Shown here: one piece after another, positions 30,532 to 63,482 of the stretch
Position numbering within the stretch: position 1 is the stretch's first letter
How the letters are laid out: each line of letters opens with the position of its first letter
Program-made: the position numbers and the translations under genes
The notes under the pieces: model-generated
Told to the model about the DNA's origin: nothing
Databases searched by the model: none
The model's input: only the letters and a program-made list of their open reading frames with translations
NCBI GenBank assembly: GCA_013824245.1
Contig: PNNN01000050.1
Location: 65,150-129,149, forward strand
From: Chlorobiaceae bacterium
GTDB lineage: Bacteria; Bacteroidota; Ignavibacteria; UBA10030; SZUA-254
Direction of reading: 5' to 3'
Length of the DNA stretch: 64,000 bases

Positions 30532-32478
30532 ATGCCCGGTAAAATTATTGGTATAGATTTAGGAACAACAAACTCGGTTGTTGCAGTAATGGAAGGTAAA
30601 GAACCAACAGTAATTGCAAATGCTGAGGGTGGGCGTACTACACCTTCGGTTGTCGGCTTTCCAAAAAGCGGTGAACGACTTGTTGGTCAGGCAGCCAAAC
30701 GGCAAGCAGTAACAAATTCACAAAACACAGTGTTCTCGATTAAGCGCTTCATGGGAAGATTTCAAAATGAAGTGACTGAAGAGATGAAACTAATCCCATA
30801 CAAAGTTGTGCAGGGAGATAATAACACAGCACGCGTTCAGATCGACGACAGAGTCTACTCACCGCCCGAAATCAGCGCGATGATTTTACAGAAAATGAAA
30901 CAGACGGCTGAAGATTATCTCGGCTCGAAAGTAACAGACGCAGTTATCACGGTTCCCGCATACTTCAACGATGCGCAAAGACAAGCAACGAAAGAAGCTG
31001 GTGAAATTGCCGGCTTGAATGTTCGTAGAATTATTAACGAACCTACTGCCGCCGCACTTGCTTACGGTTTGGATAAAAAACACAAAGACATGAAGGTTGC
31101 CGTATTTGATCTTGGCGGTGGTACATTCGACATCTCTATACTTGAACTCGGCGAAGGAGTCTTCGAGGTTAAATCTACAAATGGAGACACGCATCTTGGC
31201 GGCGACAATTTCGATCACCGAATAGTAGATTATATTGCAGATGAATTTAAAAAACAAGAAGGACTCGATTTACGAAAAGATCCGATGGCGCTTCAACGTT
31301 TGCGCGAGGCAGCAGAAAAAGCAAAAATGGAATTATCTCAGCTTATGCAAACCGAAGTCAACCTTCCGTTCATTACCGCAACATCTGAGGGTCCCAAGCA
31401 TTTGAATCTCACTATAACTCGCGCTAAGTTTGAACAGCTTGTTGAGGATTTGATTCAACGCTGTATTCCCCCTGTCGAAAAAGCACTGCGAGATGCTTCT
31501 CTTAATCCGAATCAGATAGAAGAAATAATTCTTGTCGGAGGGATGACGCGCGTACCACGTGTTCAACAACTTGTGAGAGAAATATTCGGCAAAGAAGGTC
31601 ATAAGGGTGTAAACCCTGACGAGGTTGTTGCGATTGGCGCGGCAATTCAAGGAGGTGTTTTATCCGGCGATGTTACTGATGTTTTATTGCTCGATGTTAC
31701 GCCGCTGACACTCGGTATTGAAACACTCGGCGGTGTTACCACACAAATGATAACGGCGAATACAACAATACCCACAAAGAAAAGCGAAATCTTTTCGACA
31801 GCATCAGAAAGTCAACCATCGGTAGAAATTCACATCTTACAGGGTGAACGACCAATGGCGATTGATAACAGAACGCTCGGCAGATTTCATTTAGACGGAA
31901 TTCCTCCGGCTCCGCGCGGTGTTCCTCAGATCGAAGTTACATTCGATATCGATGCAAACGGTATGCTTCATGTAACCGCGAAAGATAAGGCGACGAACAA
32001 AGAACAAAGCATCCGCATAACATCTTCAAGTGGTTTGAGCAAAGAAGAAGTTGATAAAATGAAAACCGACGCGCAGGCACATTCGGCTGAAGATAAAAAA
32101 CGAAGAGAAGAAGTCGATACGAAAAATCAAGCCGATAATCTTGTATTCCAAACACGCAAGCAGTTGAAGGAATTCGGCGATAAAATTCCACCCGACTTAA
32201 AATCGAAAGTCGAATCGGCGGCAGATGCTTTGGATGCGGCTATTAAAAACAATAACATTGCCGATATAAAAGCGAAGATGGAAGCATTGAATAATATTTG
32301 GAACGAAGCATCCACGGCGATGTATCAAAAAGCCACCGCCGAAGCGCAACAACAACAGGCAGGCGCGCAGCCACCTCCGCCAACAGGAGAGTCAAACGCG
32401 ACAAGCAACAACACAAAAAAGAACGACAAAGCCGTTGAGGATGCATCGTTCGAAGTTGTTGACGATAAGGATAAATAA
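30532..32478 (+). CDS. dnaK: molecular chaperone DnaK (Hsp70)
   Basis: The canonical N-terminus [15 protein letters not shown] starts at 30532, preceded by AAAAGGAG 8 nt upstream. The ORF's 64-aa upstream extension has no Hsp70 similarity. Confidence 0.97.
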
Positions 32479-32662
32479 CCCTCACCCCAATGGGGTTGAC
32501 TAATAAGTTTGTTTTCTCGTTACATTCTTCGACTTGCCGTCGAAGAACACTCGAAAACCGACAGGGTAAGCGGGTTCTCGAGTGCGATTTCGAAGAAATC
32601 GTGTATCGAGAGAACATTTTAGTCAGCCACTGGCTACGACGAAGTCGGAGCCGGGGAGAGGG
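32479..32662 (+). ncRNA. structured intergenic element, copy 1 (candidate novel sRNA or structured MITE); strand tentative
   Basis: Nested helices:
- P1: 32479-88 / 32653-62.
- P2: 32494-503 / 32619-28.
- P3: 32511-19 / 32607-15.
- Three hairpins at a 4-way junction: 32525-47, 32548-84, 32585-601.
- An extra hairpin at 32632-52.
A second copy lies at 62107-62278 on the other strand. Confidence 0.5.
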
Positions 32663-32679
32663 TCTGAAAGATCCATATA

Positions 32680-32916
32680 ATGACAAACGCTATCTGGTTT
32701 TTAATAATTCTAGTTCTTGTTGTAGCGTTCTTGATTTACGCCACCAAGAAGCGTTGGGTATCGTGGCGCGGTTCCCATGGAATAGCAACACTAACCGCAT
32801 TCCACGACTTCCAGCCGAAGGATAAACAGGAAGCAATTGAATACGTGATGGAAGAAAAAGCAGGAAAGAAGATGGAAGAGAAAGAAAGCAATGGCAACAA
32901 AGTCCCGAGTGAGTAA
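32680..32916 (+). CDS. small membrane protein (hypothetical)
   Basis: 78 aa. One clear TM helix ([18 protein letters not shown]) followed by a charged tail. Sits immediately upstream of clpB. No family recognised. Confidence 0.45.
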
Positions 32917-43160: not shown

Positions 43161-45161
43161 TTATTTCGCTTCCGCTAATCTTATCAACACAACTCCATGA
43201 TACGGCACTTCTGTTTCGAATACATTTTCAAAAACTCCGAGGTCTTTCTGCCGCCAAACATCTCGAACAGTAAACTTACTGCTAATGCCGAGGTCGTTTC
43301 CTTTTAATATAATCTTCGCCGATTTCTTTTCACCCCAATTGAAATATTTCTCGGGTTCTTTCTTTTCACCTAAATCAGGATAGAAAAGTCCGACTGCCTT
43401 CGATCCGTCTTCCATTTCCTTCATCCAGATCTGTTTACCGTCTTCGTCATAAATTCTCCGCGCTTGAACGCCAAGAGGATCTTGATTGATCTCAATGACT
43501 TCATCATTGGTGAGAAGGTTCAAAGTGAAATCATCAAGCCGACTCATATCAGCGCCGATGAGAAGCGGTGAGCAAAGAAGCGACCACAAACTTATGTGTG
43601 TGTATTGTTCGTCTGGTGTGAGATTTGATGGATGCAACTGCGGACCCCAGCCAACGAGTCCGACAACAAGCATATCAGGATCGTTCCAATGTCCGGGACC
43701 TGCATACTTCTCGTGTCCCGCTTGATTGAAGCCGATGCCGGACATGCTCGACCAAGTGTCGGTAATGTCACCGGTTGTGCGCCAGCAGTTTCCGCCAACT
43801 TCTTCCCCCCATTCCCACACTTTCCCCATTCCGTACTGGCATAGACTGTAGACGATATCACGAGGAACTTTGCTGAGAGCATCGCGCATAACCTGGTAGG
43901 GCTTCTTGAGTTCCGGCAAACTTCTGTCTTTTGCAATCTTGCTGTAAGAGCACCAATCGTATTTTAGATAATCGATTCCCCAATCAGCGTATCGCTGTGC
44001 ATCTTGAAATTCATATTGATAACTTGCAGTGAAACCGGCGCATGTTAGCGGACCAGGTCCGGAATAGATTCCTAACTTCAACCCTTTGCCGTGAACGTAA
44101 TCAGCCAGCGCTTTCATATCGGGAAATTTTTTATTTGTGTTGATCATGCCGTTCTTGTCGCGCAGTTCACCTTGCAATTCCGGTTCTTTCGCGTCGGGTT
44201 TTATTTCCCAACAATCATCGATATTGATATACGTCCATCCGTAATTGATAAGTCCTGAAGAAACCATTGCATCAGCCGATTCCCGAACCTTTGCATCATC
44301 AACAGCACATGCCCAGCAATTCCAGCTATTCCAACCCATCGGCGGTGTGAGTGAGATTTGATTTCCAACCTTGATGCGAAGTTCACGCTTCGCATCACCA
44401 ATTTCATTCTTTGCGATCAATGTTACATTACGCTCACCTGCTTTCATTATTTGTCCGGTGATGATTCCACTTGCTTCATCCAGAGATAATCCATCGGCAA
44501 GATTTTCTGCCGAGAAGGTCATCGGTCGTTTACCGGTTGCCGCAATTGTATAGAGGAATGGATTCCCCGGTCGAACACCGAAAACTTTCGCTCCATTTAT
44601 TTTGGGTGAATCGGAAGGTTTCGGAGTTAGTATATATGGTTCAATCGCAGTTTTAACTACAAGCTCATCCGGGGTGCGTTTCGATGTAAACTCTATTTTT
44701 GCATCGCACCAATCAGCATGATCATAATCTATCCAATCATCGGCATCTCCGACGAGAAGTCCGAGAAGTTTGATTCCATCAAGATTGAGATTAACTTTTT
44801 CCGGTTTATCACCTTTCTTCATCACCGGACTTTCCCACAAGATTTTCTTATCTCCGACAACGAAGAACTTTACCGATCCATTGCCATCAACAACTTCATC
44901 ATCTAATCCAACAAATGCGGTGAATTGTTTCCCTTTGCCGTCGAGATTCAATAGCAAAGTGCTGACGGCATGTGTTCCAACACCGCGCTCAAATTTTTGT
45001 CCTGCTAAGGTGAGCGGATTTCCTTCGACGGATTTGTTTGCTTCAGGTGTTCCCCAACCGCATTGCATCGAGGTAAGATCAAGCTCGTCGAGCCAGATAG
45101 TTTGAGCTTCTAGAATTCCCGTAAAAAAGATTATGATAATAATTAACAATACGGTTTTCAT
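43161..45161 (-). CDS. secreted alpha-galactosidase (GH27) with N-terminal NPCBM-like carbohydrate-binding modules
   Basis: 666 aa. Signal peptide and NPCBM-like WLDELDL...GWG..., then the GH27 core PPMGWNSWN, YINIDDCW, LKYDWC. Confidence 0.88.
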   Translation of the reverse strand: MKTVLLIIIIIFFTGILEAQTIWLDELDLTSMQCGWGTPEANKSVEGNPLTLAGQKFERGVGTHAVSTLLLNLDGKGKQFTAFVGLDDEVVDGNGSVKFFVVGDKKILWESPVMKKGDKPEKVNLNLDGIKLLGLLVGDADDWIDYDHADWCDAKIEFTSKRTPDELVVKTAIEPYILTPKPSDSPKINGAKVFGVRPGNPFLYTIAATGKRPMTFSAENLADGLSLDEASGIITGQIMKAGERNVTLIAKNEIGDAKRELRIKVGNQISLTPPMGWNSWNCWACAVDDAKVRESADAMVSSGLINYGWTYINIDDCWEIKPDAKEPELQGELRDKNGMINTNKKFPDMKALADYVHGKGLKLGIYSGPGPLTCAGFTASYQYEFQDAQRYADWGIDYLKYDWCSYSKIAKDRSLPELKKPYQVMRDALSKVPRDIVYSLCQYGMGKVWEWGEEVGGNCWRTTGDITDTWSSMSGIGFNQAGHEKYAGPGHWNDPDMLVVGLVGWGPQLHPSNLTPDEQYTHISLWSLLCSPLLIGADMSRLDDFTLNLLTNDEVIEINQDPLGVQARRIYDEDGKQIWMKEMEDGSKAVGLFYPDLGEKKEPEKYFNWGEKKSAKIILKGNDLGISSKFTVRDVWRQKDLGVFENVFETEVPYHGVVLIRLAEAK

Positions 45162-59915: not shown

Positions 59916-61388
59916 ATGAAAGGAAAAGATTTGAGACCTGTTGTCCGTTTCTTGGAAAACAACCTAATAGAACGCATTATTGCGGAAGCCCGTGATATAA
60001 TGTGCAAGCTCGGTATCGAAATTCACAACGAGCGAATACTGACTTTGCTTGCAGATCATGGGGCAAGAGTTGATAAGAACACACAGAAAGTATTTTTCAA
60101 TCAATCTTTAATCGATAAAGCAATTGCCGCAACTCCTCATTCATTCAAGTTATACGATGTTCTTGGCAACGAAGCGGTTGATCTTTCCGGTTTCAATGTG
60201 AACTTCACACCCGGCTCAGCGGCGATTTACTGTCTTGACGGATCGACCAAGACAGTGAGGAAACCGACCACCTCCGATTACATCCGTTATGCAAAACTGA
60301 TGTCGAGAATGAAAAACATCGCATCCCAATCAACTGCCATGATTCCATCCGATGTGCACGAAAAAATTTCCGACAGCTACCGCCTTTATTTGAATTTGCT
60401 TTACTGCGAGAAGCCGGTTGTAACAGGCGCATTTACGATTGAAGCTCTCGAGATAATGAAAGAGTTGCAATTGGCAGTTCGCGGTACAAAAGAAAATCTC
60501 AAAGCCAAACCGCTTACAGTGTTTTCCTGCTGTCCAACTTCTCCATTGAAGTGGAGCGAGGTTACATCGCAAAACCTGATCGACTGTGCCGCTTATTCCA
60601 TTCCCGTAGAATATATCGCGATGCCTCTTTCTGGTTTCATGTCACCTGTAACAATTGTCGGAACACTCGTTCAGCACACCGCGGAAACTCTGAGCGGACT
60701 TGTAATAAGCCAGATGTTTAATCCGGGAACACCGGTTTTATACGGCGGCTCACCTGCTTTTTTCGATGTCCGATATGAAACTACTCCGATGGGTTCAATC
60801 GCAACGATGATGATCGACTGCGCTTACAACGAAATTGGAAAATATCTTAGCATCCCAACACAAGCTTATATTGGACTGACTGATGCGAAATCGCTTGATG
60901 TGCAAGCCGGATTTGAAACTGCAACCGGTGCAACGCTTGCCGCGCTCGCTGGTATCAATAATATTTCCGGTCCCGGAATGATCGATTTCGAAAGCTGCAT
61001 CAGCTTGGAAAAATTAGTGATCGATAACGAAATTTGCGGAACGATGCTTCGATTAGTAAATGGAATCGAACCGAAAGAAGATTTTCCCTCACTCCCAATT
61101 TTTGAGGAATTATTGCGCGATAAACATCTTCTCATTGCCGACCATACAAGAAAATATTTTAAAGAAGAAGATTATCTACCAGGACCAGTGATCAACAGGG
61201 CAAACCGTTCACGATGGGAAGAAGATGGAAGTATAACAGAGTGGGATCGTGCAACTCGTGAGATAGAAAAACAACTCAAGTCGTATCAGCCCACACGACT
61301 CGCGGAAAATATACAATCTGATTTGATAAAACTGATGTCGGCAGAAGCGCATAAATTTGGAATGAATGAATTGCCGAAAAGAGATTAG
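59916..61388 (+). CDS. MttB-family (trimethylamine methyltransferase superfamily) methyltransferase, non-pyrrolysine type
   Basis: 490 aa. Length and N-terminal pattern (IIAEARDIMCKLGIEI...LLADHGARVD) fit the MttB superfamily. There is no in-frame TAG, so it is not a Pyl enzyme. Family call from memory of the fold family. Confidence 0.78.
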   Translation: MKGKDLRPVVRFLENNLIERIIAEARDIMCKLGIEIHNERILTLLADHGARVDKNTQKVFFNQSLIDKAIAATPHSFKLYDVLGNEAVDLSGFNVNFTPGSAAIYCLDGSTKTVRKPTTSDYIRYAKLMSRMKNIASQSTAMIPSDVHEKISDSYRLYLNLLYCEKPVVTGAFTIEALEIMKELQLAVRGTKENLKAKPLTVFSCCPTSPLKWSEVTSQNLIDCAAYSIPVEYIAMPLSGFMSPVTIVGTLVQHTAETLSGLVISQMFNPGTPVLYGGSPAFFDVRYETTPMGSIATMMIDCAYNEIGKYLSIPTQAYIGLTDAKSLDVQAGFETATGATLAALAGINNISGPGMIDFESCISLEKLVIDNEICGTMLRLVNGIEPKEDFPSLPIFEELLRDKHLLIADHTRKYFKEEDYLPGPVINRANRSRWEEDGSITEWDRATREIEKQLKSYQPTRLAENIQSDLIKLMSAEAHKFGMNELPKRD

Positions 61389-62098
61389 TGCGAAAAATAA
61401 TCAACATACCGGTAAACTCTGTTATCCCAAAAGTGAATACAATCCTCGAACGACAAGGGATCCCGAATCACATTAACGCGAATGATCGCACAATAGAAAT
61501 TGCGGAAGAAGCGATTTCAATTTTCAGCAAACTTGCTTTTCCAATCGGTGTTATACAAGAATTATCGAAAGAAGAATTCGATAATGTTTTTCGTGGTGAA
61601 GGAAATAATGAAATCGATTCTCCGGTAAGGAACATTTTTAAAGCATCCGATGACTTGGCGCTCTTCGCTGTAACAATCGAAGAAGAAGTTTGCGTAGAAA
61701 TATCCCGTTTATTTTTTATGAACGATTTTGCTCTCGGCTCGATGCTTGACGCAGTTGCCTCGGAAGCAACAGAGATGGCGGCTCAGGCAACAGAAAACTA
61801 TTACCGATCTCACCTACAGAAAATAGGTCGTTTTAATAATGCAGGCGGTATTCTTCGCTTCAGTCCGGGATACTGCGGCTGGCACGTAAGTGGTCAGCGT
61901 AAATTGTTTCAGTATCTTCATGCTGAGGATATCGGAATCAATTTAAGGGAAAGCTTTTTGATGGAACCGTTGAAATCAATCAGCGGAGTTATTATATCAG
62001 GTAAAAAAGAAATTTTTCAATTTGAAGATACATTCTCATTTTGCGGTAGTTGTGCAACACATATTTGCCGCGAAAGAAGTAAATTGCTTCTTGATTAA
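61388..62098 (+). CDS. methionine-synthase activation-domain-like protein (Met_synt_B12 type)
   Basis: 236 aa. GTG start overlaps the mttB-family TAG by 1 nt. Motif RFSPGYCGW...KLF..L......I...ES..M.P.KSISGVI matches the MetH reactivation domain pattern. Confidence 0.68.
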   Translation: MRKIINIPVNSVIPKVNTILERQGIPNHINANDRTIEIAEEAISIFSKLAFPIGVIQELSKEEFDNVFRGEGNNEIDSPVRNIFKASDDLALFAVTIEEEVCVEISRLFFMNDFALGSMLDAVASEATEMAAQATENYYRSHLQKIGRFNNAGGILRFSPGYCGWHVSGQRKLFQYLHAEDIGINLRESFLMEPLKSISGVIISGKKEIFQFEDTFSFCGSCATHICRERSKLLLD

Positions 62099-62106
62099 TG
62101 ATTAGA

Positions 62107-62278
62107 CTCAACCCCCTTTGTCTCGGGGCTGTCTAAAAAGGTTCTCTCGATACTCTATAATGAAACTATGAACTCGAGAACCAGCATCTGTAGTCGGTTT
62201 TCGAGTGTTCTTCGACGACGAGTCGAAGAATGTAACGAGAAAACGAACTTATTGGACAACCCGGGAACGGGGGATGAG
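62107..62278 (-). ncRNA. structured intergenic element, copy 2 (inverted relative to copy 1); strand tentative
   Basis: The reverse complement of 62193-62262 matches 32493-32562 with 5 substitutions in 70 nt (aligned by eye). The P3 strands are identical. The closing helix is CTCATCCCCC/GGGGGTTGAG. Confidence 0.5.
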
Positions 62279-62319
62279 TTAATAAATGAATTTAAAACAG
62301 AAAACATATTGGAATCAGC

Positions 62320-62961
62320 ATGGATATTATACAAGAACTTTCTGAACAGCTTCAACAAGGTAACCCGAAAAAAGCCGCCGAGCTTACCCAGCAGGCAATC
62401 AATGAAAACATTGACACTAAAACAATACTCGATCAAGGATTGATTGCGGGCATGTCTGTTGTTGGAGAAAAATTCAAACAGCACGAGATTTTTCTGCCTG
62501 ACGTTCTTCTTGCGGCAAAAGCAATGTACGCAGGCATGGATTTGTTAAAGCCATTAATGCTAAAGGAAGGAATTCCGACGATTGGCAAAGTGGTTATTGG
62601 AACTGTGCAGGGAGATTTACACGATATCGGCAAAAATCTTGTCGCAATCATGCTGAAAGGCGCGGGCTTCGAGGTTATTGATTTAGGCAATGATGTTTCT
62701 CCGGAAAAATTTCTCGACACCGCAGAAAAAGAAAACGCCGATATTATCGGCATGTCAGCCCTGCTCACCACAACTATGCCGGTTATGAAGAAAGTGATTG
62801 ATCTTGCAAAAGAGCGACAGATTTTTGGAAAGAAAAAATTCATCGTTGGCGGCGCGCCGCTTTCTACAGAATACGCAAAAGAGATTGGCGCCGATGCTTA
62901 TTGCTTCGACGGCATGAGCGCAGTGGAAGCAGTAAAACGTTTCACTTCAATATCAAGTTGA
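62320..62961 (+). CDS. corrinoid (cobalamin-binding) protein
   Basis: 213 aa. B12-binding_2 helical cap plus a Rossmann domain with the DxHxxG motif GDLHDIGKNLV. Confidence 0.9.
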   Translation: MDIIQELSEQLQQGNPKKAAELTQQAINENIDTKTILDQGLIAGMSVVGEKFKQHEIFLPDVLLAAKAMYAGMDLLKPLMLKEGIPTIGKVVIGTVQGDLHDIGKNLVAIMLKGAGFEVIDLGNDVSPEKFLDTAEKENADIIGMSALLTTTMPVMKKVIDLAKERQIFGKKKFIVGGAPLSTEYAKEIGADAYCFDGMSAVEAVKRFTSISS

Positions 62962-63015: not shown

Positions 63016-63201
63016 ATGTCATCCGTAAAAAAGCAAATGGTCGAAATAATCGAGGCACAGCCCGACGATAGCTCTTATGAAGAAATTCTTCGCGAACTGG
63101 CATTCCGAAAAATGGTTGAAAAAGGATTAACTGATTCCGAGCTGGGACATTTGATTTCGAACGATGAAATGCAGAAGCGTATACGCTCATGGCAAAAATA
63201 A
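63016..63201 (+). CDS. putative antitoxin of a type II TA pair
   Basis: 61 aa, acidic. Overlaps the downstream ParE/RelE-like gene by 13 nt. Assignment is by position. Confidence 0.6.
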   Translation: MSSVKKQMVEIIEAQPDDSSYEEILRELAFRKMVEKGLTDSELGHLISNDEMQKRIRSWQK

Positions 63202-63482
63202 ACTGGACGGCAGAAGCTGAACATTGGCTTCACGATATTTATCTGTATATATCAAAAGATAATCCCCAAGCAGCCGCCTCAACAATACAATCCATTTTTG
63301 AAAAAGCCCAAACCCTCCAAAATTTTCCCGAAGCGGGACACCGCTATTCTCATCAATCAAGAAAAGATATTCGCATTTTATTTTTCGGGCATTATCGGAT
63401 CACTTATCTAATTAAAGAAAATGGAGAAATAGATATTCTCGGTATTTTCCACGGGGCATTAGACATAGAGCGATATTTATGA
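63189..63482 (+). CDS. RelE/ParE-family toxin
   Basis: 97 aa. The pattern W...A..DL..I..YI......AA......I......L..FP..G...........R.L..G.Y.I.Y......I.IL.I.HG is typical of ParE/RelE toxins. Confidence 0.8.
   Translation: MAKINWTAEAEHWLHDIYLYISKDNPQAAASTIQSIFEKAQTLQNFPEAGHRYSHQSRKDIRILFFGHYRITYLIKENGEIDILGIFHGALDIERYL

Follow-up and report, generated by a model that had tools for sequence, protein, structure and literature searches.

The locus and its repeat family

Why should an operon whose genes are otherwise tightly packed carry a long and strongly structured spacer between two of its members, and does that structure belong to the operon at all? The question is raised by the window analyzed here, that is, the whole stretch of 64,000 nucleotides that was studied (C6:65150-129149 of a 3.23-Mb assembly in 76 contigs, hereafter G000). 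On its plus strand, the gene for an MttB protein overlaps by 1 nt the gene for a protein with a MetH-activation-like domain, and a spacer of 221 nt separates the stop codon of the latter at 62098 from the start codon of a corrinoid-protein gene at 62320 (Table 1). The original prediction had described this spacer as a gap in a compact operon, filled by the reverse complement of a structured element adjoining dnaK, and both statements stand: the gene context is confirmed by Pfam, and the similarity survives alignment. With the element 3' of dnaK (32479-32662; copy 1) as the BLAST query against the whole assembly, its minus-strand counterpart in the spacer (62105-62279; copy 2) was recovered at 80% identity over 136 nt (E 1.8e-27), and the reverse complement of 62095-62300 can be aligned to 32470-32680. 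The core of copy 2 lies 27 nt past the stop codon of the MetH-activation-like gene and is oriented opposite to transcription.

The element had been taken to exist in two copies. Iterated nhmmer and covariance-model searches (model R1, 112 positions) instead revealed a dispersed repeat family with about 15-18 copies in the genome, some 13 of them full and 5 partial, and copy 2 is the top-scoring one in this genome (129.5 bits, E 1.7e-27). Among 41 relatives searched, the element is found about 13 times in G001 and 5-7 times in G002, both members of the same genus as G000, three times in G025, which belongs to another family of the order, and as one weak match in G020, while 36 of the 41 hold zero copies. 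An exact-pattern scan across GTDB (185,579 species genomes) returned only three other metagenome-assembled genomes (MAGs), labeled Ignavibacteriales, Ignavibacteriaceae and Bacteroidota, together with one match in Shewanella that we take for chance; a few further copies, and a diverged relative in tandem arrays, are present in metagenome contigs. The element family is thus, among the sequences searched, confined to one genus of the Ignavibacteriales and a few relatives.

Tandem arrays from the metagenome Ga0208244 (L108:1172-1595, and also L106, L127 and L151) have a period of 143 or 125/252. What is repeated in them is the element's 5' half (GGTTTTCTCGATAC-hairpin-ACACTCGAAAACC), with the 3' half completing the last unit, and the genes beside them are unremarkable.

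Since the element is one of some 15 copies of a mobile repeat found in few Ignavibacteriales genomes, we regard copy 2 as a passenger and not as an operon-specific switch: it is probably an insertion of a small, non-coding, palindromic and non-autonomous mobile repeat of the MITE/REP-like kind, which did not evolve for the operon. No description of such repeats in Ignavibacteria was found in the literature; the family to which copy 2, in our view, belongs as an ordinary passenger is thus an undescribed one. For annotation, this means that the long structured spacers that follow dnaK, separate two genes of the mttB-corrinoid operon and recur at over a dozen further places in the genome should be treated as one repeat family, and not as locus-specific riboswitches or small RNAs (sRNAs).

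Table 1. Features of the corrinoid operon, of the two repeat copies in the window, and of related features elsewhere in G000
Feature	Position	Strand	Remarks
MttB gene	59916-61388	+	PF06253
Upstream operon gene, MetH-activation-like (Met_synt_B12) domain	61388-62098	+	PF02965, E 2.9e-9
Downstream operon gene, corrinoid (B12-binding) protein	62320-62961	+	PF02310 and PF02607
Core of copy 2, 139 bp	62125-62263	-	nhmmer and covariance-model matches; minus strand CGGGTTGTCCAATAAG...CTTTTTAGACAGCCCC
Outer G/C-rich frame arm GACTCAACCCCC	62105-62116		pairs with 62269-62279; flank-to-flank duplex -18.9 kcal/mol; part of the -83 kcal/mol sense-transcript fold
Outer G/C-rich frame arm GGGGGATGAGT	62269-62279		pairs with 62105-62116
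P1b 3' strand, invariant arm, copy 2	62140-62149	-	plus-strand letters GGTTCTCTCG; pairs with 62236-62244
P1b 5' strand, invariant arm, copy 2	62236-62244	-	plus-strand letters CGAGAAAAC
Invariant hairpin P3, copy 2	62173-62205	-	plus strand CTCGAGAACC ... GGTTTTCGAG
Variable hairpin P2, copy 2	62208-62230	-	TTCTTCGAC-loop-GTCGAAGAA
Core of copy 1	32492-32628	+	14 nt past the dnaK stop codon; frame CCCTCACCCC (32479-32488) / GGGGAGAGGG (32653-32662)
Four related interior words of the core, in order			GGTTTTCTCG / CTCGAAAACC / GGTTCTCGAG / CGAGAGAACC
Other repeats with the shared termini	C34:13828-13999; C7:24629-24791; C48:18060-18218; C4:151617-151777		outside the window
PF05635 genes	C27:30774; C1:252140; C1:72540; C9:89231; C29:9564; C2:74928; C1:138649; C7:86613		outside the window

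Anatomy of the element

The core measures 139 bp, and full copies open with GGGGYTGACYAAWAAG and close with CTTWTTRGTCARCCCC, the two ends pairing as an outer stem. In its interior, the word GGTTYTCKMG occurs four times, its orientation alternating from one copy to the next. When the first word pairs with the fourth (P1b) and the second with the third (P3), a four-way junction results, which also carries the hairpins P2 and P4; as can be read directly from the sequence, each word could alternatively pair with its immediate neighbor (1 with 2, 3 with 4), giving two tandem hairpins. Open reading frames across the core are spurious and inconsistent among copies.

Some copies hold a further, nested hairpin (GCCTGCC...GGCAGGC), of which the rest of the genome has about 40 more instances, and degraded forms are also seen, one copy consisting of the closing stem and a single hairpin and others being 5' or 3' fragments. 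Copy 2 itself sits within a G/C-rich hairpin frame. Such a frame is clear in 4 of 24 copies, and two more, copy 1 among them, have a distant frame arm; as a general rule, insertion into hairpin loops could not be established from these 24 copies, in which the comparison of framed with mismatched flank pairs was not significant (p = 0.12). The frame also accounts for the local alternative hairpins CCCG-ttcc-CGGG in copy 2 and CCCC-aat-GGGG in copy 1, which had been proposed as a second conserved structure. The letters are real, and each hairpin consists of a frame arm paired with the G-run that opens the core; because most copies have no frame, these pairings are not a conserved feature of the element, but a by-product of its nesting.

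Position relative to genes

The copies show a bias in where they lie. In 22 of 29, the distance between one edge of the copy and a stop codon is 5-35 nt, as compared with 18% of random intergenic positions within 35 nt of a stop codon (binomial p ~1e-11, given crude gene calls and copies that are not fully independent). This bias is an argument for a reading in which the repeats have been co-opted, under selection, as modular 3'-end elements, i.e., as terminators or mRNA stabilizers placed after stop codons. Such a role is compatible with a mobile origin, and it draws further support from the very stable folds of both strands, from the P1b stem that in the forward orientation is followed by CUUUUUAG, and from the location of copy 1 inside a hairpin frame at the 3' end of dnaK. 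However, the same gene ends are found without the element in congeners (see below), and the orientation that would present the U-tract is not preferred: by the same crude gene calls, 13 copies between tandem genes are reversed and only 5 forward, with 7 more between convergent and 3 between divergent genes. Copy 2, in turn, lies within an operon and is oriented such that no U-tract follows. The bias in position could also come from targeting, or from the purging of insertions in promoters. We consider co-option as the explanation for these copies to be possible but unlikely.

When the neighborhoods of the copies were screened for a candidate mobilizing enzyme, the only recurrent protein families were abundant proteins with T9SS tails and the spurious open reading frames that run across the element itself.

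Folding and the pattern of sequence change

Both copies in the window fold far more stably than dinucleotide shuffles of the same sequence, with energies of -88.1 kcal/mol for copy 1 (z -7.4) and -71 kcal/mol for copy 2 (z -7.2). To what extent the structure is conserved can be seen from 32 copies, in which standard pairs fill 94% of the cells for the proposed pairs as compared with 32-55% when the partners are slid. The helices nevertheless differ in how this is achieved. In helix 1 (P1b), 89% of cells are paired with hardly any change in sequence, and in helices 3 and 4 (P3) the figure is 96-99% with zero covariation, while two-sided changes are confined to P2, where they affect 8 of 9 pairs. 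P2 exists as at least four distinct hairpin sequences, and between copies both P2 and P4 occur as a handful of whole-hairpin versions. Given that P1b and P3 are invariant in sequence and that P2 and P4 vary as whole units, the pattern is apparently a modular one, in which invariant arms are combined with exchangeable hairpin modules, unlike that of a classic covarying RNA.

These observations bear on whether the repeats are a family of independently transcribed, structured sRNA genes, with copy 2 lying antisense to the operon and transcripts of the copy-1 type pairing with the operon mRNA. The fold z-scores of about -7, the P2 pairing that is kept through two-sided changes and an invariant U-G pair on the forward strand of P1b speak for this reading, and the 5' terminus of many copies includes TAAGTTTG, which we take to resemble the -7 promoter box of Bacteroidota. 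On the other hand, the three other helices are invariant in sequence, and the few whole-hairpin types of P2 imply few events; copies of the ATAGG subfamily lack the -7-like word, and copy 2 has an imperfect form of it (TAAGTTCG); the copies are not kept at orthologous sites; and no match to Rfam 15 was found in the whole window at gathering thresholds. Nor is one strand favored over the other in folding: of 28 copies, 13 have the lower energy on the forward strand (Wilcoxon p = 0.40).

The original prediction had further suggested co-folding of the two copies. Copy 1 in the dnaK sense and the copy-2 region in the operon sense do form a heteroduplex in silico, with 128 intermolecular pairs and an energy of -217.9 kcal/mol as compared with -167.7 kcal/mol for the separate molecules, so that pairing is thermodynamically possible with a gain of about 50 kcal/mol. 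We give this little weight, because any oppositely oriented pair of copies yields such a duplex and each RNA has a very stable fold of its own; it is no evidence of function. All in all, an sRNA family seems to us improbable. The proposal that the element is an autonomous unit thus holds in the sense of a mobile unit that is not a leader or riboswitch, but not in that of an independent transcription unit, which is unsupported in view of the lack of strand asymmetry in folding, the occurrence of copies in either orientation and the existence of truncated and nested copies.

Empty sites and relations between species

Evidence that copy 2 was inserted, as had been proposed, comes from comparison with sites that lack it. 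The order of the mttB, MetH-activation-like and corrinoid-protein genes is kept in three relatives without the element, in which the spacer before the corrinoid gene measures 114 bp (G020), about 30 bp (G025) and 640 bp with an unrelated small open reading frame (G002). A long structured spacer placed directly 5' of the corrinoid-protein gene in an otherwise tightly packed operon might suggest that the element controls this gene in cis, as a leader, attenuator or riboswitch. This reading can for practical purposes be dismissed, given these three operons without the element, the presence of the same sequence, in either orientation, next to dnaK and to over a dozen genes unrelated to one another, and permissive Rfam searches (E up to 10) around both copies that gave only chance-level matches (E above 6) and no riboswitch model.

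The protein encoded by the 640-bp insert in G002 (L076, G002:C4:410100-411050) is small and has a signal like that of lipoproteins.

At the dnaK site, G002 is likewise empty, with a 46-bp spacer that has its own small hairpin, and G020 has a G/C frame like that of copy 1 which encloses a different inner hairpin and no core. Twelve further sites in G000 were compared with the relatives by using the joined flanks of each as a single query. The site at C1:75904 is cleanly empty in G002, and that at C3:43319 (43319-43452) is empty in G001, bringing to four the loci at which related genomes are polymorphic for the insertion. In G002, the spacer matching C3:43319 (L192, G002:C4:1313063-1313174) is occupied by a member of a different subfamily that points the other way, and the difference in both subfamily and orientation within one spacer points to independent insertions. 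It is from such differences between species that we infer that the element moves.

Sequence relations among the copies are not those of their hosts. The nearest relatives of copy 2 are found in G002 and G001 (92-94% identity over the core), and not in its own genome, and two copies in the JAUXOG01 MAG (L085:1007-1144 and L087:3841-3977) share 95-96% identity with copy 1, yet the DNA around them cannot be aligned to G000. Near-identity of the element within unalignable flanks suggests either that it has been transferred between species or that it is under strong constraint. An identity of about 95% across diverged genomes, together with changes in P2 that preserve the hairpin, could instead reflect selection on a function.

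Termini and candidate enzymes

If the element is mobile, what moves it? The terminal 14-mer GG[TC]TG[AT]C[CT]AA[TA]AAG has 20 exact matches in the genome as compared with about 0.4 that we would expect by chance in a genome of this size if all bases were equally frequent, and the termini GGYTGACYAAAAAG / CTTTTTRGTCARCC are common to at least three other repeat families of 160-190 bp with unrelated interiors (Table 1). One of these, at C4:151617-151777, has arms built of CTAAGTG heptamers, and a partial copy of the present element at C7:24.8 kb, comprising only the 5' part, adjoins another repeat family and not a gene. Several interiors that share a single pair of termini are expected if one enzyme acting in trans recognizes the ends. 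The invariant termini and arms would then be the recognition structure of that enzyme.

Neither a target-site duplication nor an autonomous parent came to light. No duplication was found at the boundaries of 28 copies or in the comparisons of filled with empty sites. Neither in G000 nor across some 700 kb of retrieved loci did a pair of termini enclose a transposase, and those pairs that lie 260-5000 bp apart are coincidental, placed around ordinary genes such as those for glycosyltransferases and a nucleotidyltransferase. Since assemblies of MAGs often lose repeated insertion sequences, the missing parent should be interpreted with caution, as weak evidence.

One copy (G000 C1:5860-5997) is flanked by a direct duplication of about 57 bp of host sequence (TCACCGGAAAATATCCAACCTTTGTTAC...TTAATATCC), unlike all other copies.

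Three protein families were considered as the mover and rejected. Y1 transposases (RAYT/IS200, PF01797) are encoded in 34 of the 41 relatives regardless of the element and are missing from G002, which bears it, and the four Y1 genes of G000, as candidates for a cognate RAYT, are flanked by other, unrelated hairpins. The IS1595 family (PF12762) was considered because the ends of its IS1016 group read GGGgctg; it is absent from the element-bearing genomes G000, G001, G002 and G025, and its copies in relatives do not have the termini. Genes for four-helix-bundle proteins (PF05635) are framed by heptamer arrays in eight cases, in none of which the termini of the element are found.

These eight PF05635 genes, of the 23S rRNA IVS type, are each bracketed by inverted arrays of a different heptamer.

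It may be asked whether the four invariant arms and the shared termini are acted on by a recombinase or nuclease that is structure-specific and as yet undescribed. Such an enzyme would insert the element without duplicating the target, would favor sites immediately 3' of stop codons and would sometimes use the loops of existing hairpins, and it would mobilize several repeat families with different interiors. This would be a form of transposition between Ignavibacteriales species that is outside both the MITE/IS and the REPIN/RAYT schemes, and we offer it as a speculation that we consider quite unlikely. The wider interest is that Ignavibacteriales harbor families of nested palindromic repeats that have their termini in common and for which neither a target duplication nor a recognizable transposase is seen, so that identification of the mover could reveal a new mobilization mechanism.

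Relation to known repeat systems

The nearest described analogs are the YPAL/RU-2 and ERIC/IRU repeats of Yersinia and other enterobacteria, which are non-coding intergenic repeats of 127-168 bp that form long imperfect palindromes, occur at low to moderate copy number in either orientation, are co-transcribed with flanking genes and show filled and empty sites between close species (PMC2229807). The present element resembles them in size class, as a non-coding palindrome, in copy number, in its occurrence in either orientation and in its filled and empty sites. YPAL is not A+T-rich, has no terminal TA and targets regions of dyad symmetry (PMC2229807), for which the copies nested in G/C hairpins provide a parallel. 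The present element differs in having no sequence similarity to these repeats, in its Ignavibacteriales host, in a core that is a four-way junction of four invariant arms instead of one long stem, and in the lack of a target duplication, which in ERIC and YPAL is TA or 3-26 bp (PMC2229807).

A second parallel is with the REP/BIME/REPIN elements mobilized by RAYT (Y1 HUH) transposases, which are palindromic, extragenic and without target duplications, cluster at the 3' ends of genes and between the genes of operons, show mosaic or nested organization and have been proposed to act in mRNA stabilization and termination (PMC3733652). Palindromic structure, the lack of a target duplication, placement near gene 3' ends or within an operon, and nesting are all features of the element described here. 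However, REP units are 20-40 bp long, are present in tens to hundreds of copies and bear GTAG or CGTC tags (PMC3733652), and they are often arranged in inverted doublets, whereas the present unit of 139 bp, in about 15 copies, comprises two tandem hairpin units inside one closing stem. Further unlike the REPIN-RAYT system, none of the four Y1 genes of G000 is flanked by the element, and Y1 genes do not track its distribution, G002 having copies and no such gene.

Bacterial MITEs such as Correia/NEMIS and RUP are, thirdly, small, non-coding and dispersed, with terminal inverted repeats and insertion polymorphism, and several families of internal sequence may share one pair of termini (PMC2229807, PMC10969869). 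At less than 300 bp, the element described here is likewise non-coding and multi-copy, has GGGGYTGACYAAWAAG and CTTWTTRGTCARCCCC as terminal inverted repeats and is polymorphic in insertion, but its copies show no target-site duplication, a parent insertion sequence whose ends match was not found, and the TA termini of classical MITEs are lacking. The element behaves like the broad MITE/REP class of intergenic repeats and stands outside strict membership of either, in the one case for want of a target duplication and a parent insertion sequence, in the other because unit size, copy number and linkage to RAYT differ.

Consequences for the operon

A passenger may still affect the transcript on which it travels. 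The original prediction held that the operon mRNA would carry the complement of the element and that this could still fold, and the calculation agrees: the sense transcript over 62085-62325 folds at -83 kcal/mol (z -7.0), with a structure that extends from 7 nt past the stop codon to about 40 nt before the start codon of the corrinoid-protein gene. In this direction, no U-tract follows the structure of copy 2, and a simple scan for terminators gave no match there.

REP elements and ERIC repeats are co-transcribed and alter the stability of flanking mRNA segments (PMC2229807, PMC3733652), and for ERIC the effect depends on orientation (PMC2229807). By analogy with them, the most plausible effect of copy 2 would be that of a boundary for mRNA decay or processing. 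As the related genomes show, the element landed, or was kept, in the spacer 27 nt past the stop codon and inside a small G/C hairpin. The complement carried by the operon mRNA would form a structure of about -80 kcal/mol, which could block 3' exonucleases or serve as a site of processing; in either case, it could uncouple the transcript levels of mttB and the corrinoid-protein gene. The insert thus predicts a boundary of mRNA processing or decay between the methyltransferase genes and the corrinoid-protein gene, which sister species, lacking the insert, would not have.

Further downstream, between the corrinoid-protein gene and a gene with a homocysteine S-methyltransferase domain, lie a ParE toxin gene (63189-63482, PF05016) and a small upstream open reading frame (63016-63201), and this region (63016-63482) looks like a second mobile insert in the corrinoid operon.
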